Assembly: GCA_963755125.1 (NCBI GenBank)
Contig: CAVWIP010000012.1
Location: 150,602 to 214,601 of the forward strand
Direction of reading: 5' to 3'
From: an uncultured delta proteobacterium
Lineage (GTDB): Bacteria > Myxococcota_A > Polyangia > Fen-1088
DNA: 64,000 nucleotides
This document shows, in pieces, positions 4,722-19,587 of the stretch; position 1 is the first letter of the stretch; each line of letters opens with the position of its first letter. The notes below the pieces were generated by a model. The model ran no database searches. It was given only the letters and a program-made list of their open reading frames with translations, and was not told the DNA's origin. The position numbers and the translations under genes are program-made.

Positions 4722-6056
4722 CTATCCAGCTCGGTACAGGCGCCACAGCCACGCCGGCCCGAGTGATTCTTGCAGCGCGACGGCAGTCAGGGTCACGAAG
4801 AAGAGGAGCCGAACCGCGTAGACGATCTGGCGCCTCGCCGGCGCGCCAATCCACGACATCGAAATCAACAGGTGCCACGCGCAGAACTCGCGCAGACTGA
4901 AAATGGTGAGGCCAAGCCAGGCAAGGACCGCCACGTCCAGCCAGGCCCGTGACCACAAGAGCATACCGCCGCAGAACACGAGCAGGGCGGCCACGTTCCA
5001 GGCCATCGGAACGTTCAACCCTGGCGACGACAGGAGCAGCGGATTGGTAACGCCGGATTGACGCAAGCCGGGCAAGTCCAGCCAAAACGCGTACAGCGAG
5101 GCTGCCGCACAGCCAGCCGCCACGGCCAGCGCCGGCAGATCCCGCCAGGTCCAGCGTTTCCACGCCCGATCCTTCAGCAGCAGGAACACGCCATAAAGCA
5201 CCCATGGCGCCAGAAAGAACGCCCGGAAATGTACGAAGGCCGCCACGCAGTACGCGACAATGGCAGCCAGGCTGCGCCGTTGGCCCAAGTAGCGCGCGCA
5301 CAGGGCCAGGGGGACCATGGCGGCGCAGTCGTAGAACCCTTCGAGCGACCAGTGCATCATGCACGAATAGAGGAACGACACACCCAGCCACTCGACACCC
5401 GATCGCGGTCCTTCGAAGTACGACAGCAGGAAGCAAAACAGGGCGACGTGGGCGGCCAGGATGAACCACCCAAAGAGCAGCCGGCAGGCGGTTTTGAGGG
5501 AGATCGGTGTAAAGTGGTAGATGGCCGCGATTGGTGCGAAGAAGAGTACGTCACCCGGCGGGTACATTCGCGACTTGTGCGACCAATTGGTGGCCAGGGG
5601 TTTCGTCTCGGGCCATCCAGGAACGAAATACACACCATCCGACGGGACGCCTGGTACGCGCACATCCGCCGGCAAGCGCGCCAATTCGGCGGCGGTCAGT
5701 GGACGGAACATTTCGTGGATCGGTTTCCTCCACAGATCCGGGCCGACGCGCGTGAAGACCCGGGCTGTGTTCATATGTGAAAAATGGTCGGTCCACGCGC
5801 CGTTGGACAGATCGCCCCACGGGTGGTCGAATGTGCGGGCGCCATTCCAGACCGACCACAGGACCAGGGAGACCAGGGTGATGGTCAGGGCCTTGCGCCG
5901 CGGGGATGGATCATCGAGGCACAGCAAACGGCGCAACGGTTTCCACAGCCCTGCCAATGGTTGAAGAAGTGCTCGGAGGCGACCGACCTGCGACACGACT
6001 GTCGTGGTAACAGCCCCGGGCAGTCTATTGCCTCTTGTTTTCCTTGGGAAAAGCAT
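4722..6056 (-). CDS. Polytopic integral membrane protein, roughly 10 predicted TM helices, function unknown. It may be a GT-C-fold glycosyltransferase.
   Basis: Long hydrophobic ORF. The start was placed at ATG 6054-6056 (MLFPRKTRGN...). The ORF-track start at 6164 is also possible. It is the last gene of the co-directional PKS-associated operon. Confidence 0.55.
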   Translation of the reverse strand: MLFPRKTRGNRLPGAVTTTVVSQVGRLRALLQPLAGLWKPLRRLLCLDDPSPRRKALTITLVSLVLWSVWNGARTFDHPWGDLSNGAWTDHFSHMNTARVFTRVGPDLWRKPIHEMFRPLTAAELARLPADVRVPGVPSDGVYFVPGWPETKPLATNWSHKSRMYPPGDVLFFAPIAAIYHFTPISLKTACRLLFGWFILAAHVALFCFLLSYFEGPRSGVEWLGVSFLYSCMMHWSLEGFYDCAAMVPLALCARYLGQRRSLAAIVAYCVAAFVHFRAFFLAPWVLYGVFLLLKDRAWKRWTWRDLPALAVAAGCAAASLYAFWLDLPGLRQSGVTNPLLLSSPGLNVPMAWNVAALLVFCGGMLLWSRAWLDVAVLAWLGLTIFSLREFCAWHLLISMSWIGAPARRQIVYAVRLLFFVTLTAVALQESLGPAWLWRLYRAG

Positions 6057-6176
6057 GATTTGACGTGCGTTCCAGCAAACCGCGAGCCAGTCGTCGCTGC
6101 CGAGGGACAACCTCCACGATGCACCCGGTCCGAACACGCGTCGAGAAACCCGAGCAACGCGCATTCAGTGGTCGGG

Positions 6177-7685
6177 TCAGCGGCTGCGTTCGAGCACCAC
6201 GATGGCATGCCGGTCGAACTTCGGTACGAAACCAGCCCGCCGGGCTTGAGAGTCGACCGACGAGCCCTTGCCGGCCAGCACGTGCGAAAAGAGGCGATTG
6301 GACAGGAGCTCGGGCTCGTACTTGACCTGGGGCAGATCGCGGCCGAACCACACGGTGGCGCCGGTGTAGAAGTGCCAATCCAACAACAGGCCGGTCGCGT
6401 TCTTCTGGCGCGCCACCCAAGCCTGACCGTCGAGGCGAGCGTGCGAAATGTCGAAGTCGAATTGTCGCAAATGGCGAGCGCCGTCCACCACCACGGCCAG
6501 CATGCCGGCGACGATGACCAGTTGCTTTGCGCGAGTGAGCCATCGCCGCAAGCGGCTTGGCGCTGCGCCACCGTTGCTGGGCGGCGCGCGCGAGAAGAGC
6601 CAATGCCCGAGCACGGTTCCCGCCGCAATCAACAGGAACGGCCAGAAGAGCAGCGCGAAGCGTTCTTCCTTGTGCGCCTGCGTGCTGATGTAGCCGAGCA
6701 GACCCGCAGCCGAAAGCACGAACGGCCAGGTGGCGCGCAAACCGCAGATGGCCGGCAAGACCAGGATGGCCAGGCCGATAGGCAAACGCGCCCAGATGCC
6801 TGCCAGGTACCAAGTCGCGGGTTCGGTGCCGAACTCCGCGGCCCGGCCCTGGATGATGTTGAACTTGATGAAGGCGAGAAAAGATCCGAAGAAATGTCCC
6901 CAGGTCAACCGATCGACGATCCCGAACAGGGCCACCGGGACCAGGGCCGTCCCCGCAAGGATGGCGAGATCCCGCCACCGGTGCCGGGCGCCGAGCCAGA
7001 TCGCGGGCAGCAAAACCAGCGCGCCGTTGACGATGCGCAGACAGACCGCGAGGGACAGCAGCGTGCCGATGACGACGGCGCGCCCCTTTCCCTCTCGCGG
7101 GTCGAGTTCGGTCTGCTCGGCGACCAGGGCAAACGCGACGATGAGGACGATCATCGAAGGCAGCTCGGTGAGCGGCTCGACCGAATACAGGGCCAGCAGG
7201 GGAAAGGTCGCCATGAGAAAAGCGGCGACGAGTCCACCTTGCCAGCCCGCGGGTGGCGCGTCGCCAACGAACCCCATGGGCGCCGGCTGATCGAACACCA
7301 GATGTCCGCACGCACAGCACGGATGACGAGGGCGAAGCTGCCGCGCGCACGAAGCCCCCGCCCGCCACGCCGCCCACACCATGAACATCGACAGCAAGCC
7401 CCAACTCAAGCGAATCATCTCGCCGATCGTGCTGCCCCGCAGGCCCAGGCTCCTTCCCAGCGCCATCCACGCCCCGTGGTAACCGGGCAGTACCCAGGAG
7501 CGCAGACCGTCGGTCCACTCCCAGGTCTTCATGCCCTCACCCGTCACGCGGGTCCAGGCTGGCTCCAGGCTCTGAAAGTAGGCGTCTGGATACAGTACCG
7601 GTCCCAGGCGCGCGGCCACGATGCGGCCCACGAAGCCCACGGCGAGCACGATGCCGAGAATGAAGCGCACGCGTCGTGCGGTCAT
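6177..7685 (-). CDS. GT22-like (PIG-B/Alg9-type, Dol-P-Man/polyprenyl-P-sugar dependent) membrane mannosyltransferase family protein
   Basis: The N-terminal conserved block YPDAYFQSLEPAW...WEW..LRS...PGYH resembles the GT22 'PDE-FQ-LE' signature. The protein is polytopic. The ATG at 7683-7685 overlaps the upstream stop as ATGA, which indicates translational coupling. Confidence 0.6.
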   Translation of the reverse strand: MTARRVRFILGIVLAVGFVGRIVAARLGPVLYPDAYFQSLEPAWTRVTGEGMKTWEWTDGLRSWVLPGYHGAWMALGRSLGLRGSTIGEMIRLSWGLLSMFMVWAAWRAGASCARQLRPRHPCCACGHLVFDQPAPMGFVGDAPPAGWQGGLVAAFLMATFPLLALYSVEPLTELPSMIVLIVAFALVAEQTELDPREGKGRAVVIGTLLSLAVCLRIVNGALVLLPAIWLGARHRWRDLAILAGTALVPVALFGIVDRLTWGHFFGSFLAFIKFNIIQGRAAEFGTEPATWYLAGIWARLPIGLAILVLPAICGLRATWPFVLSAAGLLGYISTQAHKEERFALLFWPFLLIAAGTVLGHWLFSRAPPSNGGAAPSRLRRWLTRAKQLVIVAGMLAVVVDGARHLRQFDFDISHARLDGQAWVARQKNATGLLLDWHFYTGATVWFGRDLPQVKYEPELLSNRLFSHVLAGKGSSVDSQARRAGFVPKFDRHAIVVLERSR

Positions 7686-8383
7686 CGTCCCCACACTTCG
7701 ATTTCAAAAATACGCACAATCTGACCGGGGCGGTTGGGCACGAATCTCACGCGCACACCACGAGCGCCCGAACAGGCCAGCGCGTGCACGGCCACCGGCG
7801 CGTGATTGTCGGTCACCACCACCGGCGGCGGAACTGGCCGCGCCTGTAAGCACCACAGGCTGTATTCTTGCGAGGTGAAATCCGCTGACTCGACTGTTCC
7901 GGCGTGACGGATCACCACACTTCTGACTTGTCGCTTGCCCGACCAGAGCAGTTCCACCCAGGGATGCCTGTCGCCGGGGTCGGATGCCCATTTCTCCACC
8001 AGGGTGGGATTCGTGCGGCCGTCGACAAGATAGCCCGGGTTGTGCTGGGAAAAGGGGTCGCGAAAGAAGGAGCTGACCCGCACGGTCGTTCCCAGACGGT
8101 ACGCCACGAGATTGTGCTCCCCCGCAGGATGGGCTTCCAGGGTTGGAAACGCGACCACGGCGACCGCCTGCCTGCGCACGAACAGAAAGAAGCCCGTGCT
8201 CCAGGCAATGACCAAGACTCCCGCCAGCGCGAAAGCAACGGTCCGTCGCCGGGCCCACACCCGACCGACGACGGACACTACGGGAGCGGTCCTTTGGGCC
8301 ACCGCGGAGATGACGAGCGTCAGACGCCGCAGGCGAATCGCCCAGGAAGGGGAATACCAAGTCGCGAACCGCGGGAGCAGCAC
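7682..8383 (-). CDS. Single-pass membrane protein with a C-terminal discoidin (F5/8 type C)-like carbohydrate-binding domain
   Basis: TM segment VAFALAGVLVIAWSTGFFLFV. The C-terminus ...HPWVELLWSGKRQVRSVVIRHAG...VRVRFVPNRPGQIVRIFEIEVWGR is an FA58C-like ending. The start is uncertain: GTG at 8383 or an internal GTG. Confidence 0.5.
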   Translation of the reverse strand: MLLPRFATWYSPSWAIRLRRLTLVISAVAQRTAPVVSVVGRVWARRRTVAFALAGVLVIAWSTGFFLFVRRQAVAVVAFPTLEAHPAGEHNLVAYRLGTTVRVSSFFRDPFSQHNPGYLVDGRTNPTLVEKWASDPGDRHPWVELLWSGKRQVRSVVIRHAGTVESADFTSQEYSLWCLQARPVPPPVVVTDNHAPVAVHALACSGARGVRVRFVPNRPGQIVRIFEIEVWGR

Positions 8384-8439
8384 AGTGAACTGCTAGCCTA
8401 TCACTTCCGTTGGCGCGGCGCTGCGCGAGCCGCCAGGAC

Positions 8440-9180
8440 CTATTTCAGCAACGCCATCGTCACCACATGCGCATCAAGGTCACACCATAGCAGGGTGAGC
8501 GAGCGCGGTGCCATTCGCGCGGCCAATACAGGTGCCAAAGCAATGTCCAGCGCGCGCCAGGCTTCGGCCAAACCTGATGGCGCGTCCATCTCGTCGCCCA
8601 CCACGATGTCGCGCGTGTCGTGACGAAGCCCGAGGCCCATGGCCTTGAGCACTGACTCTTTGGCGCTCCAGATGCGCGCGACTGTCCGGTCGGCGTCGCG
8701 GCCACCGGTCTTGCTCACGCGAGAGGCTTCGCTCTCGCTGAAAAACTGTCGCACCAGAGCCGGATCGCGAGGCTCAACGGTTTCGAGATCGGCGCCGATG
8801 CTGGCCCCGGGCGGCAGCGCGATTGCCGCCAGGCCCCAGTCCCCACGATGCGAGATTGACAATGATAGGGGCAGGCGGCTCCCTTGCAGATCGACGTACG
8901 GCATTCCCGACTCGTCATTGAGGACGCTGAACTGGCAACGCCAATCGTGATTCGAGCTGGGCTTTCCCATTAACCCCGCCACGAGGCCGTTGCCTTCGGC
9001 TGCCAGTTCGCCCAGCAACCGCTTGGCCGCCCAGCGGCCGAGCAGCCATTTCCGCCGGCGCGGCAACAGCGCCAACCCGGCGAGGATCGCTTCCTCGCGC
9101 GGGCTGAGCAGGCCCGGCGGCGCCTGACCCGCTGCCAGCGCGGGGTGCTCGCCGGCGTGGGCCAGGACGTGACGGAACAT
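8440..9180 (-). CDS. Sfp-type 4'-phosphopantetheinyl transferase
   Basis: Motifs SLSISHRGDWGLAAIA and WSAKESVLKAMG (PPTase W/KEA motif). The ATG at 9178-9180 lies 3 nt downstream of the PKS stop. Confidence 0.85.
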   Translation of the reverse strand: MFRHVLAHAGEHPALAAGQAPPGLLSPREEAILAGLALLPRRRKWLLGRWAAKRLLGELAAEGNGLVAGLMGKPSSNHDWRCQFSVLNDESGMPYVDLQGSRLPLSLSISHRGDWGLAAIALPPGASIGADLETVEPRDPALVRQFFSESEASRVSKTGGRDADRTVARIWSAKESVLKAMGLGLRHDTRDIVVGDEMDAPSGLAEAWRALDIALAPVLAARMAPRSLTLLWCDLDAHVVTMALLK

Positions 9181-9183
9181 CGG

Positions 9184-12100
9184 TCACCCGATGACGCCGC
9201 GGAAGCGGCCCAAAGCCTCGTCGGGCAGCCCGCCCGGGATGCGCGAGGTGCGGTAGCCCTGCACGGTCAGGTAGACCTTGCCCTCGTCGTCGCGCACCCG
9301 CGCGTCGAACGACAGCGCGTCCTCGGACGCATGCGGTTGCAGCTCGGCCACCATCGTCTTGCCGTCGGGCGCCGGATCGAACACGGTCACTCGCTCCACC
9401 ACCGAGGGCAGCCCCATCTGTCCGGTCTGGCCGATCTCCCACACGCCCGCGGTCTGGAAGCACAGCTCGACCATGCGCGGCCCGACCATGCTGGTGCTGT
9501 TGGGGTTGGTGGTGTCGGCAGGCAGAGGTGTCCTCATGGTCCCCACCACCTTCCCGCTCGATAGCCGGTTGACCATCTCCAACACCCGGTAGGCCGGACC
9601 GTGGAAGTACACCCGGTAGATGTCGTCGTGGCCGATGCCGCCCACCGGGCCAGCGCCATCGACGGCCGTGCGCGCGCTCGGTCCCGTCCCCTGTTCCAGC
9701 ACCACCACGCCGGCGAAGTGCAGTTTCTCCTCGGGCTCGCGCCCCACCACCACCTGCACCGACGACAGGCTCGTATGAACCCGCACCCGCCCATCCGCGC
9801 CCAGCACCGGCCGCGCGCGCACGATCACCGAACGCGGCTCGTGGCGGTAGTACTTCATGGGCGCCAGGAAGCGCACGTTTTCCAGCGCCGCTACCCGATG
9901 CTGCGGGGCCAGCAACCAGGCCGCCTCGGCGAATGTCTCCAAACCCATCACGCCCGGCAGAACCGGAATGCCGTCGATGGCGTGATCGTGAAGGAACGGC
10001 TCCACCTTGGGGTCGAGACGAATCTCGGCCGTCATGCCCTGGTGCAGATCGAAGGTGACGTTGTCAAAGGGCAAAGGCAACGCCCTTTCGCGGGCGCGGG
10101 CCAGCAGGCTGCCCTCGGGATCGATGCCGCCGTCCTTGTCAAAGGGCTCCATCAGGATGCCCAGCTTGTGCCCCACCACCGCTTCGCCCGAGAAGCCCGC
10201 CTGCAGCGCATGGCGGATGACCGGCAGGCCCTCGTCCGGCGACAGCATGTCGATACCCGCGCGCTTCATGATCTCGGGGATGCTTCCGCGCGTGGCCATG
10301 CCGATTCCACCCCAGGCCGTCCAGTCGAGCGCGATGCCCAGCGAGCCCGGACGCGACGCCGCCCACCAGGAGAGCGTCTTGCACATGAAGTCGTTGCCCG
10401 CGCTGTAGTCGGCCTGACCGGCGTTGCCAAATCGGCCGGCGACCGACGAGAATCCGACAATCGCCTTGACGTCCATGTCGCGTGTCGCGGCCAGCAGATT
10501 GAAAAGCCCGTCGGCCTTCACCCGGAAGACCAGGTCGAATTCCTCCACCGGCTTGCGGTCGAGCGAGCGGCTGCGCTCGAGCCCTGCGGCGTGCAGGATG
10601 ACGTCGATGCGTCCGCTCTCGGCGCGGATGTTGTCCACCACCGCCTTGACCGCAGCGCCGTCCAGCACGTCGACCTGACGGTAGAAGGCACGGCCGCCTG
10701 CCTGCTCCACCCCGCGCAGGGCTTCCAGGATGCCGGCCTGCCGTTCCAGATCGAAGAGCTTCTCCTCGACCTGCGCGGGCGTGGCGCGGCCCTTCTCGGC
10801 CTTGATGCGCTCGAAGACCTCGCGCTTGGCAGCCTCGCGATCCTTGATCACGGTTTCGAGCAGAGCGTGTTCGCTCTCGGGCGGCATGGCGCGCGCATCC
10901 AGCAGGTAGAACGTGCCGCGCGACGCAGCCGCCAGATCGCGCACGATGGCCACGGTGATGGCCCCAGCCCCGCCGGTGACGGCGAACACCGTGTTCTCGT
11001 CCAACGTGAGCGGCGGCTTGGCGTCGGCCGGCACGGCTTGCATGACCTCCAGGCCAACCGTCACGCGCACGCCCCCCGCGTAGCCGATCTCCACCGCGCC
11101 CGGATCCTGCTCGGTCTCGTCGAGCAACGCGCGCGCGATGGTCTCGGCCGAGGCGCCGTCCTCGAAATCGACCGCCTTGGCCAGCAGATCGGGCCGCTCG
11201 CGCCGCAGCGTCTTGGTGAAGCCGGTGACCGCGCCCCCCACGGAGTTGCTGGCGCCGCTCGCACCATAGCCGTGCTGGCCGCCCATGCGGGTGGCGGCTA
11301 TGACGAAGCTGCCCGGGGTGCCCAGGCCCTCGTACAGGCCGCGGGCCGCCCCGTGCAAGAGCAAGACGCGGTCGCGGTAAAGCTTGCGAAACTGGACCAG
11401 GTCGAGGTCCGCCAGCGAAGCCGAGCGGTCGAGAGCAGGCAGAAAGTAGAGGCCCACGGGCTTGCCCGGCTTTGCCCATTTTTGCAAGGCGGCCTCGATC
11501 TCGGCCCGTTCCGGTCGCGCATCGATGCGCAGCACCTGCACTCCCCGACTTTCCAACTCATCGCAGAGGAGCTTGCCCGCACCTTCGCTGTCAGCGACCA
11601 CCACCACGCGACTGCCTCTCTCCAGTCGCACGCCGGTCTTCTTGCACGAATCCAGTGGAGGCCGCAGGGTCACCACCGGACGGCGCAGCAGCCCACTCAC
11701 AAAGGGGCTCTGCCCCACCGCCGCGTCGGCTGCGGCAGTCACGGCGGTCGGCGCTGCCACGGCAGGCGCAGGTGCTGTCGGCGCGGCCGGTGCCGCTGCC
11801 GGCAGGTACTTGTTCACGAACCCGATGACGTGGCGAAGGGTCGGGTAGTCCCGCAGCTTCACATCATCCTGGCGCGGAATACTGAATGCCTCCCGCACCA
11901 GCGCGAACACCTCCGCCTGCTTGACCGTGTCGATCCCCAAGTCAGCCTCGAGATCCAGGTCCAGCTCCAGCATGTCGCGCGGATAGCCCGTCTTGCCGGC
12001 CACCAGTTCCAGAACCTTTTCTTCGATCGGATTCCCCGAACCAACTGCACTAGCCGTGGTCGTGGTCGTGGTCGTAGACGTGGTCGTGGTCGTGGCCGGT

Positions 12101-15100
12101 TTCGCAGCCACAACTGCCGGCGCTGCCGCCACCAGATCCGGCCGATTCGTCTCCACGAACCCGATCACGTGACGGAGAGTCGGATAGTCACGCAGCTTGA
12201 CGTTGTCCTGCCTCGGGATATTGAACGTCTCCCTCACCAACGCAAACACCTCTGCCTGCTTGACCGTGTCGATCCCCAAGTCAGCCTCGAGATCCAGGTC
12301 CAGCTCCAGCATGTCGCGCGGATAGCCCGTCTTCTCTGCCACCACTCCCAGTACCTTCTCCACCACGACACTTGTCGTGGCCGTGGTCGTGGTCGTGGCC
12401 GTGGCCGTGGCCGTGGTCGGAGCCGTGGCCGTGGCCGTGGTCGTAGTCGTGGCCGGTTTCGCATCCACCATCGGCACCGCCGTCACCAGGTCCGGCCGAT
12501 TCGTTTCCACGAACCCGATGACATGACGGAGCGTCGGGTAGTCACGCAGCTTGAGCGTATCCTGGCGCGGAATATTGAATGTCTCCCGCACCAGCGCAAA
12601 CACCTCCGCCTGCTTGACCGTGTCGATGCCCAGGTCAGCTTCGAGATCCAGGTCCATTTCCAGCATGTCGCGCGGATACCCGGTCTTTTCTGCCACCAAT
12701 CCCAGCACCTTCTCCGCCACGACACTTGCCGTGGCCGTGGTCGTGGCCGTGGCCGTGGCCGCCGCCGCCCCTGCCCCAACCAGATCCGGCCGGTTCTCCT
12801 TCACGAACCCCACCACATGCCGGAGGGTCGGGTAGTCACGCAGCTTGAGCGTGTCCTGCCGCGGAATATTGAATGTCTCGCGCACCAGCGCGAACACCTC
12901 CGCCTGCTTGACCGTGTCGATGCCCAGGTCAGCTTCGAGATCCAGATCGGGATCCAGCATGTCGCGCGGATAGCCGGTCTTGTCGCTGACCAGTTTGAGC
13001 ACCGACTCCATGGCGGCGTCCGCTCCCGACGCTGCCGCGACAGTCGTGACCGCCGAGGACGCGGCCGACGGTGCGGTCGCCACCGGCGCAGGCGCCGGCT
13101 GAGCCGCAGGAGTCGCGATCACGGCCGGCGCGAGCGGCACTCGCGGCGCAGGCATCGCTGGCATCGGCGCCCCATCGCTCAGGCTTGCGCTTGGGCCCGT
13201 GCCCATGGTCCAGCTCGACTGAGCCGGCTCGCGCGCCGGCTGGCCAATGTCCTTGATGCGCAGGGTGCGCTTCTCGACCTCCAGGACCGGCGCCGGGTAC
13301 CCGGAGATCTCGGACAGCCAGCGTTGGTAGGCAGCCCGATCGGCCACCCGCTCTTCCAGACCATCGATGCGACGGAGCACGGTCATCGCGATCTGCGAAC
13401 CGAAGCCGGCGGCCAGTCGCAGGGCGTAGCGCACGGGATAGTGCCCGCCCTTCGACAGATTGAGCGTGCCCAGCTCGGGATCGGGCTCGCGGTAGTTGGG
13501 CACCGGCGGAACCACCTGCTTCTCCAAAATCTTGACCGCCACCGCGTCCTCCACGCCCACACCCATGGGATGACCGGTGAACCCCTTGGTGTTGCACACC
13601 ACCAGATCGTTGGCGCTGGCGCCAAAGGTCTTGCGTAGGGCGAATATCTCGGCCGAGGCGCTGCCTCCGCGCGCTGGCGTGTAGGTCTCGTGCGAGATGA
13701 ATACCAGCTCGCGCGCCATGGCGTGCCGATCGATGCCGTGACGTTGCTCCACGCCCGACACCAGCCGCTCCATCACGCCCTCGATGTGATCCACATCCAG
13801 GCGCGTCCCGTGGAAGGCGCTGTTGGCGAATGTGCTGCCCAGCACCTCACACAGGCCGCGCATACCGCGCTCGCGCAGCGAATCTTCCGACTCCACCACC
13901 AGGCCGCAAGCGCCCATGCCCAGCAACATGCCGTTGCGCCGGCGATCGAAGGGCAGCGCCGCCTTTTCCAGCACATCCTCGGTGGTGGCCGCGCCAGTGG
14001 CCAGGAAGCCGGCACCCATCCATTCCAGCAGGTTGTCCGAGGTGACGTCGTCGGCGCCGATGATGAGCACGCGGCGGCAGCGGCCGGCCCGGATCCAGTC
14101 CTCGGCCATGCCCACCGCCATGGTGGTCGAGGCGCAAGCCGCGTTGACTTGCGTGTTGGGACCGCGGATGCCGAGCAGTTCGGCAAACTGCGCGTGACCC
14201 ATGGAAAGAATGCGGAAGAGGAAACGGCGATCGAACTCGTAGCTGCTGCGGCCGGTTCGCTGCGCGAAGAAGCGCGTGACCTCGTCGACCAAGTTGTCGT
14301 AGCCGGGAAAAGCCGAGGCGAAGATCACGCCGGTCTCATCGGCCATCGCCACCGGAAGCCGCCAGCGGTCGGGCAAAAAGCTGCCCGTGGTGGTGCGGCG
14401 ATAGTGGCGCACCAGGGGAATGCCCGCGTCGCGCAGAGCCTCGATGCCCGCGGCGATGGCCAGCGCGGTGGTGACGTCCCAGGCTTCCACGCGCTCGCGC
14501 GGTACGCCGAATTCCTCGACGATATCGAAGACGCCGCGGCGGCCAGCCAGGCGAATGACCTCGTCGACCGATCGGATGGGATCCAGGCTGGGCTCGCCCA
14601 CCTCGCGCTTGACCAGGCGGACCACGTTCTTTTCCACCATGCGGGCGCGGAAGACGTGCGGCACCGGATCGATGAAGGAGTCGCCGCGCAGAATGCGTTC
14701 CACGTTGCCGTCATCGAAGACGTGTTGCTTCTGCCCAGGCAGGCCCAGGGCCGCGCCTGACACGACGATCGAGCCCGAGCGGGCCTCCGGCAAGGCGGGC
14801 GGGCCGGCGCGACGACCGCCGTACATCGCCATGCCCTCGTCGAGAAAACGCGCAAACAGTCTTCCCAGCCCGTCGTAGTTGGGCTGGCCTGCGGAAGTGC
14901 GAATAGGACTCTCGCTCATGATCTGGGTTGCTCCGTGCGAAGAATTCGGGAGGGAAACTGTGGGTGTGGCTGTTGCAGTGGCGGGCGGCGTCCCTGCAAG
15001 GGCAGCCACAAGATCCTCGGGGCGCGGGATGCCCGCGGCGTAGAAGCCACACATGGCATCGTGGAACGAACGGACGCCGCCGCGCTTGGGATGGTTAGTG

Positions 15101-17817
15101 GAGAAGCAGATGACGTCGTCTTTGTCCTCGAGAATGCTGTCGGCCAGGGCCATGAGCGCGCGCTTGGGCCCCACCTCGACGAAGATGCGCGCCCCCTCCC
15201 GGTAGCAGGTCTCGACGCCCTTGACGAACTGGACCGAGGACGCCATCTGGTCGGCCAGGCGCCGCCGGATGGTGTCCATGTCGTGGGTCGGGTAGAGATC
15301 CCCGTCGATGTTTCCCACCAGGGGAATGCGCGGGAACGCGATCTGCATCTCGCAGATGGTCCGGTAAAGCGCGTCGGATGCCGGTGCCACCACCTTGCTG
15401 TGGAAGGCGTGGGACACCGGGATGAGTTGCGCCGTCATGCCCAGCTTGTTGAAATAGTCGACCGCGCGGTCGACCGCATCGCTGGCGCCCGCAATCACGG
15501 TCTGCTTGCGGCTGTTGATGTTGGCCGGTGTGAGGTAGCCGCCGATCTCGGGCAGCCGGCTCACGATCTCGTCGGTGGGGCCGGCCACCGAGGCCATCTT
15601 GCCCTTGTCGCCGATGGACACCGAGGCCATGGCGCGCGCGCGTGCGCTCACCGCCACCAGTGCCTCGGGGAAGGTGACCATGCCCGCGCCCACAGCCGCG
15701 GCCCATTCGCCCAAACTGTGCCCCATCACGATGTCGGGCTTGACCCCGTGTTTGTCGAGCAGGCGCATGATGGCGATGTCGCTGGCCACCATGGCTGGCT
15801 GGCAGATGGTGGTGTCCTTCAGTGCCTCCTCGGCGGCTTGCACGGCAGCCGCATCAGCCTCGTTCTTGTAAACGTATGCGGTCAGCGGCTGACCCAGGAT
15901 GGGACCCATCACGCGGTCGGCCTCGGCAAAAGTTTCGCGCACGATCGGATCCGGAACATCGGCCAGCATGTTCACGTACTGTGAGCCCTGTCCCGGGAAG
16001 AGGAAGGCCACCTTGCCCGCTCGACCACACCGGAAGTGGATGCCCTTGCTCTGCAGCAGACGCCACTTCTTGGGCTCGTCCTTTTCAAGAGCTGCCAGAG
16101 CGGTCTCACCCTTCTTGACCAGATCGGCTGCATCCTCGAAGGCAATCACCAGACGTGCGGGCGCGGCCAGAAAGTCCGGTCCTGGCGGCTGGCGGTCGGG
16201 GGTCTGGCCGGCCTTGGCCCTTTCCAGCGCCTGGGTGAGGGCTGTGCGCACCGCCACCGCGTCGGCCCCGGACACGGCCAGCATGTTGCCCAGCATGGAC
16301 GGCCGGGTGTCCCGGGCCAGCGCGACCGAGGACGAGCCACCCGCGAAAGAAGCTGGCACCTGCACCAGCGGCTCACGCCGAGCCAACATGCCGGGCACAT
16401 ACTCCTCGACCACCACGTGGAAATTGGTGCCGCCAAAGCCGAAGGCCGACAAGCCACAGCGCCGCGGACCGAACGACGGCTTCTCCCAGGGCTGGGCCTT
16501 GGTGTTCACGAACAGAGGCAGCTTGTCCCAGGGAATGTTGGGATTCGGCTCTTTGAAGTTGATCGAGGGCGGCAGAATCTTGTGGTGACAGGCCAGCACG
16601 ACCTTGAGCAGGCTGGCGGCGCCAGCCGCGCTCTTGAGGTGGCCGATCTGCGACTTGATCGAGCCGAGCGCAATCCGATGCTTGATGGGCGAGCCTTCGG
16701 AGAGCAGCTTGGCCACGGTTTCCATCTCGGCCACGTCCCCGGCCCGTGTCGAGGTGCCGTGGCCTTCCAGGAGTGTCATGGTCGCGGGGTCCAGTCCGGC
16801 GCGCTCCCAGGCGCGACGCAAGGCCAGAATCTGCCCGATGGGATTGGGCGCGGTGATGCCCTTGCCCTTGCCGTCGCTGGAGCCGCCCACGCCGCGGACC
16901 ACCGCGTAGATGCGATCGCCCGCCTTCTCCGCGTCCTGCAGACGCTTGCACACGAAGAAGGCACCGCCCTCGCCCATGATGAAACCCTTGGCGTGCTTGT
17001 CATAGGGCCGCGATCCGTCGGGCGAGAGTGCGCCGATCTTGCAGAACTTGATGAAGGTGGTGGCGCCCATGTTCCGATCCATGGCGCCGGTGACCACCAC
17101 GTCATAGTGGTGATCGACCAGACCGTCGACCGCGGATTGCAAAGCTGCCAGCGAGGAAGCGCAGGCGGCGTCGGTGGTGAAATTCGGTCCGCGCAGGTTG
17201 AGCACAGCGGCCACGCGGCCGGAGGTGATGTTGGTCAACTCGCCGGGCATGGTGTCTTCGGTGGTGTCCGGAAAACGCCGGTTCACCGACTCCCGCAACT
17301 GCGCAACAAAGGCCGCGCGCTCGGCCTGGGGCAGCGACTGGAAGATCTGGGTGTCGGAGATGGCGTGCACGTACTCCGGCATGGAGAGGCGCAAGCAGGT
17401 CAGGTAGTGCAGCTCGCCGCCCATGGCATTGCCCAGGATCACGCCGGTCGATTCGGTGTCGAGCGGCCGGTCGGGATGGCCCGCGTCGCGTAGCGCCTCG
17501 GAAGCGCAGAGCAGAGCCCATTTCTGGCCGTCATCCATCGCGGCCGATACCGTGGGCGGAATGCGATACTTGGTGGGCTCGAAGGAAACGCCGCGCACCC
17601 AGCCGCCGATCTTTGAATAGGTCTTGCCCGGCGCCTTGGGATCAGCATCGTAGTAGTCAGCCTGGTTCCAGCGATCCAGGGTGACCTCGCTCACCGAGTC
17701 CCGGCCGGTCACGACGTTCTGCCAGAAGGCCTTGGCATCGAGCGCGTCGGGCAGTATGGCCCCCACGCCGATGATGGCGACGGCTCTCTCGGCCGGATCG
17801 CGTGTCGAACGACTCAT
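9184..17817 (-). CDS. PfaA-like iterative type I PKS / secondary-lipid synthase (2877 aa). The domain order is KS - AT - KS - 4 tandem ACP - KR - DH.
   Basis: KS1 has DAACASSL, EGHGTSTRAGD and KSQIGH (about nt 17790-16420). AT has GQGSQ, GHSLGE and HAFHS (about nt 16000-15050; GHSLGE near 15705-15722). KS2 has NAACASTT (near 14140), FHGT and NTKGFTGH (about nt 15000-13620). There are four near-identical ACPs, each with LEADLGIDTVKQAEVFALVRE, separated by Ala/Thr/Pro linkers (nt 13030-11825). KR has the Rossmann motif TGGAGAITVA (near 10965) and YSAGN. PKS-type DH has HDHAIDGIPVLPG (near 9985). The RBS is ggaggaag ahead of ATG 17815-17817. Confidence 0.95.
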   Translation of the reverse strand: MSRSTRDPAERAVAIIGVGAILPDALDAKAFWQNVVTGRDSVSEVTLDRWNQADYYDADPKAPGKTYSKIGGWVRGVSFEPTKYRIPPTVSAAMDDGQKWALLCASEALRDAGHPDRPLDTESTGVILGNAMGGELHYLTCLRLSMPEYVHAISDTQIFQSLPQAERAAFVAQLRESVNRRFPDTTEDTMPGELTNITSGRVAAVLNLRGPNFTTDAACASSLAALQSAVDGLVDHHYDVVVTGAMDRNMGATTFIKFCKIGALSPDGSRPYDKHAKGFIMGEGGAFFVCKRLQDAEKAGDRIYAVVRGVGGSSDGKGKGITAPNPIGQILALRRAWERAGLDPATMTLLEGHGTSTRAGDVAEMETVAKLLSEGSPIKHRIALGSIKSQIGHLKSAAGAASLLKVVLACHHKILPPSINFKEPNPNIPWDKLPLFVNTKAQPWEKPSFGPRRCGLSAFGFGGTNFHVVVEEYVPGMLARREPLVQVPASFAGGSSSVALARDTRPSMLGNMLAVSGADAVAVRTALTQALERAKAGQTPDRQPPGPDFLAAPARLVIAFEDAADLVKKGETALAALEKDEPKKWRLLQSKGIHFRCGRAGKVAFLFPGQGSQYVNMLADVPDPIVRETFAEADRVMGPILGQPLTAYVYKNEADAAAVQAAEEALKDTTICQPAMVASDIAIMRLLDKHGVKPDIVMGHSLGEWAAAVGAGMVTFPEALVAVSARARAMASVSIGDKGKMASVAGPTDEIVSRLPEIGGYLTPANINSRKQTVIAGASDAVDRAVDYFNKLGMTAQLIPVSHAFHSKVVAPASDALYRTICEMQIAFPRIPLVGNIDGDLYPTHDMDTIRRRLADQMASSVQFVKGVETCYREGARIFVEVGPKRALMALADSILEDKDDVICFSTNHPKRGGVRSFHDAMCGFYAAGIPRPEDLVAALAGTPPATATATPTVSLPNSSHGATQIMSESPIRTSAGQPNYDGLGRLFARFLDEGMAMYGGRRAGPPALPEARSGSIVVSGAALGLPGQKQHVFDDGNVERILRGDSFIDPVPHVFRARMVEKNVVRLVKREVGEPSLDPIRSVDEVIRLAGRRGVFDIVEEFGVPRERVEAWDVTTALAIAAGIEALRDAGIPLVRHYRRTTTGSFLPDRWRLPVAMADETGVIFASAFPGYDNLVDEVTRFFAQRTGRSSYEFDRRFLFRILSMGHAQFAELLGIRGPNTQVNAACASTTMAVGMAEDWIRAGRCRRVLIIGADDVTSDNLLEWMGAGFLATGAATTEDVLEKAALPFDRRRNGMLLGMGACGLVVESEDSLRERGMRGLCEVLGSTFANSAFHGTRLDVDHIEGVMERLVSGVEQRHGIDRHAMARELVFISHETYTPARGGSASAEIFALRKTFGASANDLVVCNTKGFTGHPMGVGVEDAVAVKILEKQVVPPVPNYREPDPELGTLNLSKGGHYPVRYALRLAAGFGSQIAMTVLRRIDGLEERVADRAAYQRWLSEISGYPAPVLEVEKRTLRIKDIGQPAREPAQSSWTMGTGPSASLSDGAPMPAMPAPRVPLAPAVIATPAAQPAPAPVATAPSAASSAVTTVAAASGADAAMESVLKLVSDKTGYPRDMLDPDLDLEADLGIDTVKQAEVFALVRETFNIPRQDTLKLRDYPTLRHVVGFVKENRPDLVGAGAAAATATATTTATASVVAEKVLGLVAEKTGYPRDMLEMDLDLEADLGIDTVKQAEVFALVRETFNIPRQDTLKLRDYPTLRHVIGFVETNRPDLVTAVPMVDAKPATTTTTATATAPTTATATATTTTTATTSVVVEKVLGVVAEKTGYPRDMLELDLDLEADLGIDTVKQAEVFALVRETFNIPRQDNVKLRDYPTLRHVIGFVETNRPDLVAAAPAVVAAKPATTTTTSTTTTTTTASAVGSGNPIEEKVLELVAGKTGYPRDMLELDLDLEADLGIDTVKQAEVFALVREAFSIPRQDDVKLRDYPTLRHVIGFVNKYLPAAAPAAPTAPAPAVAAPTAVTAAADAAVGQSPFVSGLLRRPVVTLRPPLDSCKKTGVRLERGSRVVVVADSEGAGKLLCDELESRGVQVLRIDARPERAEIEAALQKWAKPGKPVGLYFLPALDRSASLADLDLVQFRKLYRDRVLLLHGAARGLYEGLGTPGSFVIAATRMGGQHGYGASGASNSVGGAVTGFTKTLRRERPDLLAKAVDFEDGASAETIARALLDETEQDPGAVEIGYAGGVRVTVGLEVMQAVPADAKPPLTLDENTVFAVTGGAGAITVAIVRDLAAASRGTFYLLDARAMPPESEHALLETVIKDREAAKREVFERIKAEKGRATPAQVEEKLFDLERQAGILEALRGVEQAGGRAFYRQVDVLDGAAVKAVVDNIRAESGRIDVILHAAGLERSRSLDRKPVEEFDLVFRVKADGLFNLLAATRDMDVKAIVGFSSVAGRFGNAGQADYSAGNDFMCKTLSWWAASRPGSLGIALDWTAWGGIGMATRGSIPEIMKRAGIDMLSPDEGLPVIRHALQAGFSGEAVVGHKLGILMEPFDKDGGIDPEGSLLARARERALPLPFDNVTFDLHQGMTAEIRLDPKVEPFLHDHAIDGIPVLPGVMGLETFAEAAWLLAPQHRVAALENVRFLAPMKYYRHEPRSVIVRARPVLGADGRVRVHTSLSSVQVVVGREPEEKLHFAGVVVLEQGTGPSARTAVDGAGPVGGIGHDDIYRVYFHGPAYRVLEMVNRLSSGKVVGTMRTPLPADTTNPNSTSMVGPRMVELCFQTAGVWEIGQTGQMGLPSVVERVTVFDPAPDGKTMVAELQPHASEDALSFDARVRDDEGKVYLTVQGYRTSRIPGGLPDEALGRFRGVIG
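11825..13030. repeat. Tandem near-identical coding repeats of about 294-354 bp (four ACP domains plus linkers) inside the PKS gene
   Basis: An 84-bp block (cgcctgcttgaccgtgtcgatccccaagtcagcctcgagatccaggtccagctccagcatgtcgcgcggatagcccgtctt) is identical at about 11907-11990 and 12247-12330, and near-identical twice more up to about 13000. The alternative-frame ORFs 11859..12113, 12234..12464 and 12483..12779 repeat the same peptide. Confidence 0.8.
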
Positions 17818-17925
17818 TTCAACTTCCTCCCAGATATCGAAAACGGAAAACCGGGCGCCCGCCGGCTCGCCCCGGCGTCCGAATCAAGCGAATGGTTGCC
17901 TGCCTCTTTTCTCTCTCTTGCTCGG

Positions 17926-19587
17926 CTACGCGCGAGCCGCGTCTTGCTCCACCAAGGCCTTGGCCACGACGTCCATATCGGCCATCAGGCCCTTCGCGCA
18001 AGCCGTGATGGCGCTGGCCCGGAGGGCGCGCTCGAAGTCGGCAATGCCTGCATCATCCACCGCATCCATACCGCGGACCAGACGAACCGCCAGACCCAGC
18101 ACGTCAAGCGCCGCCTCGCGCGCGCAGATGCGCGACATGGCCTTGACGGCCGAAGGTGCGAAGAACGGCTGGTACTTGGGCGCGCTCCGGCCCGCAGCAT
18201 AGCGGGCGAAGTTGGCCGCGATCTCTGCCCGTGTCATCAACTCGCCCAGTTGGAATAGCACGTGCTGATTGCGGGTCAGACGGCCGACACGACAGCGCTC
18301 AGCCGTCTCCTGAACAACGTTTACCGCCAAGGCCGCCGCATCAGCCCCCACGTTGGCATCCTCGCGGTGCAGTGCTTCGAGTGAAGCAGCGATCTTCTTG
18401 TAGTACTGCCCGTGGTCCTGCAGGTGCAGGCGCCAGCGATCGCGCGATACCGTCCACTGCATGATCTCGCTGGTGCCTTCGTAGATCGTGGTGATGCGCA
18501 CATCGCGCCGGATCTTCTCGACCTCGTATTCCCTGGTGTAGCCGTAGCCGCCGTGCGCCTGGATGGCGGCGTCGGCCGCGGCGTTACCCGCCTCGGTGGC
18601 AAAGAGCTTCACGATCGCGCCCTCGGTCTGCAACTCCGGCTCGCCCTGGTCCAGCCGATGCGCCGTCTCTTCGATGAGAGCTCGCGCCGCCTCCAGCCTG
18701 ACCACATGGGGAACGATCAACTTGTCCATGTAGCCCTGCTTTTCAGCCAGAGGCGAGCCGGCCTGCACGCGCTCACGCGAGTAGCGGATGGCCCTGAGCA
18801 TGGCCGCCACGCCGCCGCCCAGGCCAAAGGCTGCCACCATGAGGCGGGTGAAACCGAACACCGACTGGGCGTGAACCAATCCCTTGCCCTCCACGCCGCC
18901 CAGCAGGTTCTGCTTGGGAACGTACACGTCCTCGAAGCTGACCGGCGAGGTATTGGACGAGCGGATGCCCAGCTTGTTCTCGTGCTTGCCAGGAACCAGG
19001 CCCGGGGTTCCCTGCTCCACCGCGAAGAAGGTGGGCCCGTCGGGCGCCATGGCCAGCACCGTGTATAGCTGCGCGTAGCCGCCGTTGGAGATGAACTGCT
19101 TGGCGCCGTCGATCTTGTAGCCCTTGATTTCGTCGTTCTCCATCACCCGCTCGGCGCGCGTGCGAATGGCAGACAACTCGCTACCCGCCAGGGGCTCGGT
19201 CACGGCGTAGGCGACAATCAAGCCTTCGTCGGCAATTCGCCGCAGCCAGTAGGTCCGCTGCTCCTCGGTCGCGCCAACCACGATGGGGTCGGTTCCCAGA
19301 AAGATGGCCAGGAAGGCGGTCGCCACGCCCAGATCCAGCTTGGCCATCTCCTCCGAGACCCGATAGACGTCGTAGGCGTTGCCGCCCAGGCCGCCCAGTT
19401 CCTCGGGGATGAACAAGAGGTGCAGGCCGATTTCAGGCCCCAGCAACTCACGGATCAGGTCGAGCGGAAAGAGATCCTTCTCATCTAGGTCCAGCCTGAC
19501 CTTGAGCGGCAGCTTCTGCTTGCCAAACGAGGTCAGCGTGTCGATCAGGGTCTGGAGTGAATCTTTGTCGAGACCTGGGTTCTTCAT
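17926..19587 (-). CDS. Acyl-CoA dehydrogenase family flavoprotein with an extra C-terminal domain of about 170 aa. It is the first gene of the PKS operon.
   Basis: ACAD motifs: ...GSELSAIRTRAE..., YKIDGAKQFISNG, TTIYEGTSEIMQ and the catalytic region YGYTREYEVEKIRRDVRI. The start was trimmed to ATG 19585-19587 (MKNPGLDKDS) with the RBS aggaagg. Confidence 0.85.
   Translation of the reverse strand: MKNPGLDKDSLQTLIDTLTSFGKQKLPLKVRLDLDEKDLFPLDLIRELLGPEIGLHLLFIPEELGGLGGNAYDVYRVSEEMAKLDLGVATAFLAIFLGTDPIVVGATEEQRTYWLRRIADEGLIVAYAVTEPLAGSELSAIRTRAERVMENDEIKGYKIDGAKQFISNGGYAQLYTVLAMAPDGPTFFAVEQGTPGLVPGKHENKLGIRSSNTSPVSFEDVYVPKQNLLGGVEGKGLVHAQSVFGFTRLMVAAFGLGGGVAAMLRAIRYSRERVQAGSPLAEKQGYMDKLIVPHVVRLEAARALIEETAHRLDQGEPELQTEGAIVKLFATEAGNAAADAAIQAHGGYGYTREYEVEKIRRDVRITTIYEGTSEIMQWTVSRDRWRLHLQDHGQYYKKIAASLEALHREDANVGADAAALAVNVVQETAERCRVGRLTRNQHVLFQLGELMTRAEIAANFARYAAGRSAPKYQPFFAPSAVKAMSRICAREAALDVLGLAVRLVRGMDAVDDAGIADFERALRASAITACAKGLMADMDVVAKALVEQDAARA

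Follow-up and report, generated by a model that had tools for sequence, protein, structure and literature searches.

The six co-directional genes on the minus strand at positions 4722−19587 of a 64,000-nucleotide contig segment from an uncultured delta proteobacterium of the class Polyangia (GenBank assembly GCA_963755125.1, contig CAVWIP010000012.1, positions 150,602−214,601; the whole segment is hereafter called the window) probably represent three evolutionarily independent units that lie side by side in the same direction, a reading to which a probability of about 75% was assigned. The first unit is a trio comprising an acyl-CoA dehydrogenase (ACAD), a PfaA-like polyketide synthase (PKS) and a phosphopantetheinyl transferase (PPTase), the second is a discoidin-like protein (DISC) paired with a GT22 glycosyltransferase, and the third is a solitary gene for a membrane protein of the GT-C glycosyltransferase fold. 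Based on the fit of the PKS and PPTase to the published definition, the trio is assigned as another member of the known but orphan Type R group of secondary-lipid synthases (Shulse & Allen 2011). The second and third units appear to be lineage-specific neighbours and not tailoring enzymes of the trio. The genes and the one notable spacer element are as follows.

17926..19587, minus strand: ACAD, a predicted very-long-chain acyl-CoA dehydrogenase (VLCAD)-class acyl-CoA/acyl-thioester dehydrogenase, 553 aa, with Pfam ACAD N/M/C domains (PF02771/02770/00441)
17848..17868, minus strand: GC-rich hairpin followed by a T-run in the ACAD-PKS spacer, found by a terminator-like consensus scan
9184..17817, minus strand: Type R PfaA-like iterative type I PKS/fatty acid synthase (FAS), 2877 aa, assigned with Pfam and NCBIfam
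8440..9180, minus strand: Sfp-type PPTase, 246 aa, PF01648
7682..8383, minus strand: DISC, a membrane-anchored discoidin-like (F5/8 type C) protein, 198−233 aa, with one transmembrane helix and a sub-threshold F5/8 match
6177..7685, minus strand: GT22 (Alg9/PIG-B-like) polytopic glycosyltransferase, 502 aa, PF03901
4722..~5996, minus strand: GT-C-fold membrane protein, ~404−444 aa with its start between 5936 and 6056, without a Pfam or NCBIfam family

To place the genes among their relatives, a genome set with one genome per species was scanned with an alignment of the PKS C-terminus; relatives were encoded in at least 583 candidate stretches, in 8 phyla or more, and the best 80 loci were kept with 10-kb flanks. 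These came from Myxococcota, Acidobacteriota, Chloroflexota, Actinomycetota, Verrucomicrobiota, Dormibacterota, KSB1 and Gammaproteobacteria. The window proteins were compared with them by tblastn, ACAD being scored where the upstream DNA sufficed (n=49). An ACAD was found directly upstream of the PKS in 46 of the 49 loci, with 53−60% identity over all 553 residues across phyla, and a PPTase downstream of the PKS in 61/62, adjoining it in 24 loci and lying ~5.7 kb away in 37. The junction of 0−3 nt between PKS and PPTase was kept in three loci (L087−L089). When all open reading frames (ORFs) of the loci were clustered against each other, only the PKS, ACAD, PPTase and a carboxylase were broadly shared. 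On these data the ACAD, PKS and PPTase are considered a conserved trio. An earlier interpretation, made from the letters and the ORF list alone (the sequence-only reading), had pointed to an ACAD in the place where some pfa clusters carry a PfaD-type enoyl reductase (ER), and the ACAD proved to be a genuine conserved partner.

For the genes beyond the PPTase, the comparison set was L007−L089, the 83 loci at which other species carry a related PKS. Homologues of DISC, GT22 or the GT-C gene were found at none of them (0/83). The set includes L007 and L009−L013, where the PKS C-terminus is 70−93% identical, and three further relatives fetched with the PKS (87%, 78% and 69%). Upstream, the close relatives keep the synteny, which takes in genes for a ROK kinase, RNase Y and a 3461-aa TPR protein as well as small ORFs. 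The DNA past the PPTase differs in each: AAA/DUF4143 with an MFS transporter; Sushi-repeat with a PIG-V-like GT-C; SlyX; DUF3392; and an expansin-like protein with an M48 peptidase.

These data bear directly on the proposal of the sequence-only reading that all six genes form one pathway, in which the lipid made by the PKS and ACAD would be exported and glycosylated in the periplasm by GT22 and the GT-C protein while the discoidin protein binds sugar, in the manner of heterocyst glycolipids. Several features speak for such a pathway: the genes are compact and co-directional without a predicted terminator between PPTase and DISC, both transferases are polytopic GT-C enzymes of a type that acts on lipid-linked substrates, and one relative (L009) carries another GT-C-type gene past its PPTase. 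Nevertheless, it is now very unlikely, since the three genes are missing from every related PKS locus, other genes take that position in relatives whose PKS is 69−93% identical and whose upstream synteny is shared, and both DISC-GT22 and the GT-C gene are also found where there is no PKS. The spacing between GT22 and the GT-C gene, described next, also counts against it.

The six ORFs of the window ORF list were recovered as the same six genes by independent gene calls on contigs of the same species (L001−L006), in line with the earlier description of six co-directional genes. That description had also made all junctions short or overlapping, but their tightness varies. The PPTase ATG lies 3 nt past the PKS stop, and the GT22 start overlaps the DISC stop as ATGA; but 108 nt, with the hairpin inside, separate the ACAD stop from the PKS start, and the PPTase-DISC spacing is at least 56 nt. 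The GT22/GT-C junction is nominally 12 nt, a value that relies on a far-upstream ATG of the long GT-C ORF. As homologues align only from residue ~55−90 of this ORF onward and gene callers use later starts (404−424 aa), the real gap is estimated at ~120−240 nt. The hairpin in the ACAD-PKS spacer could be an attenuator, an RNA-stability element or a processing site inside a conserved operon. In the promoter and terminator scan of the cluster, promoter-like sites did not rise above the level expected by chance.

The family assignments made from the letters for ACAD, PKS, PPTase and GT22 were all recovered with Pfam and NCBIfam, and that of the GT-C-like protein by fold search. For GT22, the HMMER run on 6177−7685 that had been suggested as a check returned PF03901 with E = 1.4e-35 (123.7 bits against a cut-off of 23.8), and the protein has ~9 hydrophobic segments. 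Its homologues (P0121−P0215; 36−65% identity) come nearly all from Polyangia and related metagenome-assembled genomes (MAGs). The discoidin call fared less clearly: F5/8 type C models (PF00754/PF22633) matched 4/4 DISC proteins, which is consistent, but every score was below threshold, at 15−17 bits for the window protein and 27.9 bits against a cut-off of 28.2 for the best orthologue, the latter covering positions 2−126 of the 127-position model. The transmembrane helix of DISC spans aa 51−69. In 3/3 contigs examined (L090−L092), a DISC orthologue (43−54% identity) lies immediately upstream of GT22, and the gene calls of two of these, L091 and L092, repeat the 4-nt overlap. Genes for sulfatases, glycoside hydrolases and TonB receptors surround these pairs; a PKS, an ACAD and a PPTase are missing there. 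As DISC-GT22 thus recurs in contexts without the PKS, it is regarded as an autonomous, translationally coupled pair.

The AlphaFold2 (AF2) model of the GT-C-fold protein (pLDDT 94.8) matched the GT-C fold in the fold search, and an Asp-His pair is conserved in its first external loop. Its family numbers 262 representative clusters at E ≤ 1e-3. In its members, of ~400 aa (P0336−P0485), one Asp is invariant, the His after it is nearly so, and the motifs PPGD and FYD are conserved. Of 52 members, 2−3 had Pfam matches, all of them marginal, to GT87, ALG3 and EpsG. The family profile showed no signal against GT22 or against the PIG-V-like gene of L009 (probability <1%), and no match to PDB sequences. 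The family of the protein encoded at 4722−5996 is a candidate new GT-C family. The contexts of its homologues are without GT22, DISC or PKS.

Convergent with the GT-C gene, at 2411−4611 on the plus strand, are genes for an FGE-sulfatase (formylglycine-generating enzyme-like) protein with a MopE metal-binding motif and then a DUF2330 protein. Neither this pair nor the glycosyltransferase genes were found at the equivalent position in close relatives, so the 2.4−8.4 kb region from Fpg to the PPTase is a variable island.

Turning to the trio itself, the domain order of the PKS was determined with Pfam and NCBIfam as KS-AT-KS-ACPx4-KR-DH, that is, two ketosynthase (KS) domains flanking an acyltransferase (AT), four acyl carrier protein (ACP) domains, a ketoreductase (KR) and a dehydratase (DH). 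The domain scan detected neither an ER nor a thioesterase (TE) domain. TIGR02813 (PfaA) scored 1052.7 bits against a cut-off of 1010.1, in three stretches, with the extra KS inserted. The earlier description of the PKS as PfaA-type, iterative and multi-ACP, served by an Sfp-type PPTase of its own, was upheld. Full-length PKS homologues with 48−99% identity were found by protein search in Myxococcota, Chloroflexota, Acidobacteriota, Leptospiraceae and Calditrichota; those that are ~50% identical, with the same architecture, are from Chloroflexota, Acidobacteriota and a Korobacteraceae MAG. Fen and peat soils were the source of the related MAGs. Conservation of catalytic residues was assessed in an alignment of 119 full-length family members, and the domains are listed below.

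16393..17787, minus strand: KS1 (aa 11−475), Pfam; triad C219, H353, H393 invariant in 119/119
15118..16005, minus strand: malonyl-specific AT (aa 605−900), Pfam; GHSLGE and HAFH motifs invariant or near-invariant
13378..14700, minus strand: second KS (aa ~1040−1480), a second ketoacyl-synt stretch with ACP_syn_III and thiolase matches at the Cys
11803..13029, minus strand: four tandem ACPs, Pfam PP-binding x4 (PF00550); DLGIDTVK in each, with T1635, T1733, T1851 and T1964
10309..10986, minus strand: KR (aa 2278−2503), Pfam KR; Y2471 and N2475 intact and conserved in the family
9229..10041, minus strand: PKS-type double hot-dog DH (aa 2593−2863), Pfam PKS_DH_N and PS-DH; motif H2612xxxGxxxxP

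The HAFH motif in an AT denotes malonyl specificity. The second KS, located between the AT and the ACPs, had been overlooked in the sequence-only reading. Its triad (C1228/H1376/H1416) is invariant in 119/119 sequences. Annotation of this domain as a chain-length factor (CLF), as made in 2011, was ruled out by the complete Cys-His-His triad. The DH is not FabA-like, and its HxxxGxxxxP motif is conserved in the family alignment.

The four ACPs are unusual at the site of prosthetic group attachment. The canonical Ser of (D/E)xGxDS is missing in all of them, while the fold-level match to PF00550 holds for each, and ACP2 of the window PKS contains no serine at all. In a phmmer search against PDB, the ACP Thr aligned with the phosphopantetheinylated Ser of PigH, CurA and FAS ACPs. 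Thr occupied the phosphopantetheinyl-Ser position in 544/544 ACP motifs (DLG[IV]DTVK) from 121 family proteins. Among 67 independent genomes it was present in 234/234 motifs, encoded by ACG, ACC, ACA and ACT, all of which are used. Besides the window PKS, the Thr was seen in P0001−P0120 and L007−L086. Ser (TCN) is one mutation from Thr (ACN) yet was never seen, and Thr itself must therefore be under selection; its invariance across phyla with all four codons in use indicates purifying selection for this residue. From this pattern we infer that the cognate PPTase modifies the Thr of the carrier domains, which would explain why a private PPTase is nearly always retained beside the synthase.

A Ser-to-Thr change blocks modification of the E. 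coli ACP by AcpS. This fact, and the presence of Thr at the modified-Ser position in all ACPs, could instead mean that the locus is a decaying or non-canonical paralogue, with carriers that are unprimable and a role that is silent or non-biosynthetic. Such decay is highly improbable given that the Thr is invariant across phyla with four codons used, which points to purifying selection, that the catalytic residues of KS1, KS2, AT, KR, DH and ACAD are all invariant, that the PPTase is co-conserved in 61/62 loci, and that full-length ORFs exist in hundreds of species.

At this stage, it is postulated, at slightly less than even odds, that Type R synthases tether their intermediates through phosphopantetheine on Thr, installed by a co-evolved private PPTase, and that, with an obligate VLCAD-class ACAD and two active KS domains, they form a distinct megasynthase class that makes a bulk lipid in abundant soil phyla (Acidobacteriota, Chloroflexota and Myxococcota). 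If so, the Thr linkage would be novel as a post-translational modification and the priming system would be orthogonal. This would account for the near-obligate PKS-PPTase linkage and would insulate the synthase from the housekeeping AcpS and AcpH. Modification of Thr would also extend phosphopantetheinylation chemistry and provide an orthogonal carrier/PPTase pair for engineering.

The PPTase was matched to PF01648 with E = 1.4e-16 and weakly to 4PPT_N, and its sequence WSAKESVLK fits the W/FxxKEsxxK signature. With an ACPS-superfamily domain and a size in the two-lobed class of ~230−250 aa, it is classified as Sfp-type (group II). The motifs SGMP (P1a, x(G/D)xP) and LSISH (P1b', hShxH) were read in its sequence, and the P0 and P1b motifs of the polyunsaturated fatty acid (PUFA) type are lacking.

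Where the PPTase lies apart from the PKS, the intervening DNA can encode a carboxylase. In L028 (11395−17010), a single fused protein of 1871 aa is encoded between PKS and PPTase, with biotin carboxylase, biotin carboxyl carrier protein, central and carboxyltransferase regions in the arrangement of a eukaryote-style acetyl-CoA carboxylase (ACC). In Chloroflexota loci, split carboxyltransferase and biotin carboxylase genes are placed after the PPTase. ACC-related ORFs cluster across 54 loci, and a private acyl-CoA carboxylase is present in most Type R clusters beyond this Polyangia lineage, with further examples at L042:12173−13720 and L021:13555−15090; the window cluster has none. A search of the whole 64-kb window for pfaB/C/D-like, ACC or etf genes found none, which agrees with the earlier statement that PfaB/C/D partners are missing from it.

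Three other kinds of gene often follow the PPTase in Acidobacteriota loci. An alpha/beta hydrolase of the Abhydrolase_3 type was seen in 9 loci, a GMC-family flavin oxidoreductase in 17 and an ABC1 kinase in 10, with examples at L059:18009−19745, L066:17757−18791 and L070:19598−21295. The hydrolase and the oxidoreductase, limited to that lineage, may act in release or tailoring; none of the three was counted as core.

The core sequence of the ACAD is akin to that of medium-chain acyl-CoA dehydrogenase (MCAD) and butyryl-CoA dehydrogenase, and its catalytic Glu (E370, in IYEGTSEIM) is invariant in the family. The AF2 model (pLDDT 88.3) was searched with Foldseek, and the best matches were 2z1q, human VLCAD (7s7g/3b96), 3owa and ACAD9, with TM-scores of 0.76−0.80 over 520−580 columns. 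By superposition of the model over its full length, the extra 140 residues correspond to the C-terminal helical domain of VLCAD-type enzymes. A hot-dog thioesterase or a docking domain had been considered for this extension and was rejected, the fold being the helical VLCAD-type domain. With ACAD N/M/C domains, the catalytic Glu and the additional helical domain, the protein is modelled as a member of the VLCAD class, a fold that fits a long-chain thioester substrate. The likeness to this class (human VLCAD/ACAD9, Thermus 2z1q and Bacillus 3owa) extends to a length of ~550−600 aa, a core followed by the C-terminal helical domain and the catalytic Glu in YEGT, but identity is only 23−28%, and here the gene is genetically locked to a PKS. 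Because of this linkage, the substrate may be bound to ACP rather than to CoA.

Taken together, the following route is proposed for the trio. The PPTase would prime the four tandem carrier domains and the malonyl-specific AT would load malonyl units. The two competent KS domains would split the elongation cycles between early and late chain lengths. Such a division is known from PUFA synthases, in which the KS domains of PfaA and PfaC share the elongation cycles. The KR and the PKS-type DH would then generate trans-2-enoyl intermediates, and the ACAD would serve as a trans-acting redox partner on the long acyl thioester that sets or removes the alpha,beta-unsaturation, either replacing the ER step or tailoring the unsaturation. 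The release step would not be encoded by a TE domain. The chain would be long, unbranched and derived from malonate, and the predicted product is a bulk lipid of the fatty-acyl or polyenoyl kind; it is preferred over a trace metabolite because of the tandem ACPs and the dedicated carboxylase in most relatives.

A rival reading concerns the product. The PKS lacks an ER, its DH is PKS-type with no FabA-like isomerase, the logic of KS-AT-ACP-KR-DH plus PPTase resembles that of iterative polyene synthases, and ACADs normally oxidise and do not reduce. The synthase could on these grounds make a conjugated all-trans polyene, either a pigment or a product like that of the enediyne PKSE enzymes, with the ACAD as a tailoring desaturase or unrelated to chain reduction. 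This is judged unlikely, at perhaps one chance in five, as the tandem ACPs, the acetyl-CoA-carboxylase-type enzyme and the VLCAD-class partner favour a bulk long-chain lipid, and ORF clustering of the related loci gave no conserved cyclase, thioesterase or polyene-tailoring genes.

For the units outside the trio, general knowledge of GT-C enzymes suggests a role in the envelope. The likeliest role of DISC-GT22 is to transfer, at the periplasmic face, hexose linked to polyprenyl phosphate onto a glycan or glycoconjugate of the envelope. The GT-C protein, too, most likely uses polyprenyl-phosphate sugars to glycosylate envelope components, and both units would act independently of the synthase.

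Several points weigh against the division into three units and the bulk-lipid route as set out above. All six genes are co-directional and the terminator scan found no strong terminator between PPTase and DISC, so that co-transcription of the six, and even a functional link specific to this species, would be compatible with the sequence. In the sister lineage L009 (12830−16191), genes for a Sushi-repeat protein and a PIG-V/PMT_2-like GT-C protein lie ~3 kb past a truncated-looking PPTase. The latter protein is unrelated in sequence to the glycosyltransferases of the window, and its position may be a coincidence, or genes for glycosylation of the envelope may recur in this neighbourhood. What the route says of the direction in which the ACAD works, of chain length, of release and of the final lipid is prediction. 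In the literature searched, no precedent was found for phosphopantetheinylation of Thr, nor was a Type R product, and no study later than Shulse & Allen (2011) was found that characterises Type R.

The assignment matters for what is done next with the locus. The idea of a glycolipid pathway would misdirect experiments, and the comparative data single out ACAD, PKS and PPTase as the genes that form a set. Few orphan lipid or polyketide synthases are as widespread in uncultured soil and peat bacteria as this trio, an orphan since 2011. Reconstitution now has several handles, namely the obligate ACAD partner, the recognition that the "CLF" is an active KS, and the private carboxylase in many lineages.

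The remaining genes of the window encode giant TPR proteins and, among others of the kind, NadA, an FHA protein and a response regulator. A run of very large TPR-repeat proteins (3461, 326, 629, 1178 and 605 aa) together with the FHA-domain protein (35855−38065) occupies 24220−45811 on the minus strand, and the 3461-aa protein and the adjacent RNase Y gene (22660−24219) are syntenic with the PKS locus in the relative L088. At the window edge (1−1494, minus strand), a type I restriction HsdR gene is split into 227 and 565 aa in some contigs of the same species and intact at 792 aa in others (L001 versus L003/L005), a difference that points to a frameshift polymorphism or to an error in the assembly. 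Beyond the window, HsdR is followed by an HsdM gene.

Among known systems, the eukaryotic-type GT-C mannosyltransferases (ALG3, ALG6, ALG9/12 = GT22, PIG-M and PIG-B) and the bacterial PimE/ArnT are the nearest to the outlying transferases, and the window GT22 matches PF03901 of this group. The window proteins differ in being bacterial, and the family at 4722−5996 is without a Pfam model and unrelated in sequence to GT22. The heterocyst glycolipid cluster (hglE/D/C/A/B with hglT; Type F) shares with the present locus a PfaA-related multi-ACP synthase and the idea of a glycosylated long-chain product. It is distinguished by its HglC/HglD-type partners, which are lacking here, and the local glycosyltransferases are polytopic GT-C enzymes that are not co-conserved with the synthase.

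The PUFA synthases PfaABCD(E), including the myxobacterial pfa1−3, are closer. They likewise have KS, malonyl-AT, tandem ACPs, KR and DH in a PfaA-like order, the window PKS scoring just above the TIGR02813 cut-off, and a dedicated Sfp-type PPTase, with a redox gene immediately upstream of the pfaA-like gene. In myxobacteria that position is held by the ER gene pfa1. The window locus differs in having an extra active KS fused into the PfaA-like protein and an ACAD in place of PfaD. PfaC (KS-CLF-FabA-type DH2), PfaB and the FMN-type PfaD ER are lacking in the window and related loci, and no PfaC-type or PfaD-type gene was found in the window or in the conserved gene set of the 80 related loci. 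The ACPs also differ: those of PUFA synthases carry LGIDS, those of the window PKS DLGIDT.

The closest system is Type R, one of 20 types of pfa-like secondary-lipid clusters (Shulse & Allen 2011; PLoS One 6:e20146; PMC3098273). As defined there, it consists of one pfaA homologue with the order KS-MAT-CLF-ACP(3−6)-KR (MAT, malonyl acyltransferase), followed by a PPTase gene, with an uncharacterised product, and its members are dispersed among Acidobacteria, Elusimicrobia and Chloroflexi (Koribacter, Solibacter, Elusimicrobium and Roseiflexus). The P1a and P1b' PPTase motifs were reported for Types M−T, Type R included, and in Koribacter an acetyl-CoA carboxylase gene lies between synthase and PPTase (PMC3098273). 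Unlike Koribacter, the Polyangia lineage of the window has no carboxylase gene in the cluster. The paper is silent on the ACAD partner, the C-terminal DH, the intact triad of the "CLF", the ACP Thr and glycosyltransferases, and on the pairing of ACAD with PfaA and on hglE-KS clusters in Acidobacteria or Myxococcota nothing was found in the literature beyond it. The sequence-only reading had called the system undescribed and had proposed this very scheme as a check; the system is indeed uncharacterised, but the scheme places its PKS and PPTase in Type R. The two share a single pfaA homologue with the order KS-MAT-"CLF"-ACP-KR, here with four ACPs, a downstream PPTase with P1a and P1b' and without P0, relatives tied to an acetyl-CoA carboxylase gene, and the same phyla among the ~50% identical full-length homologues.

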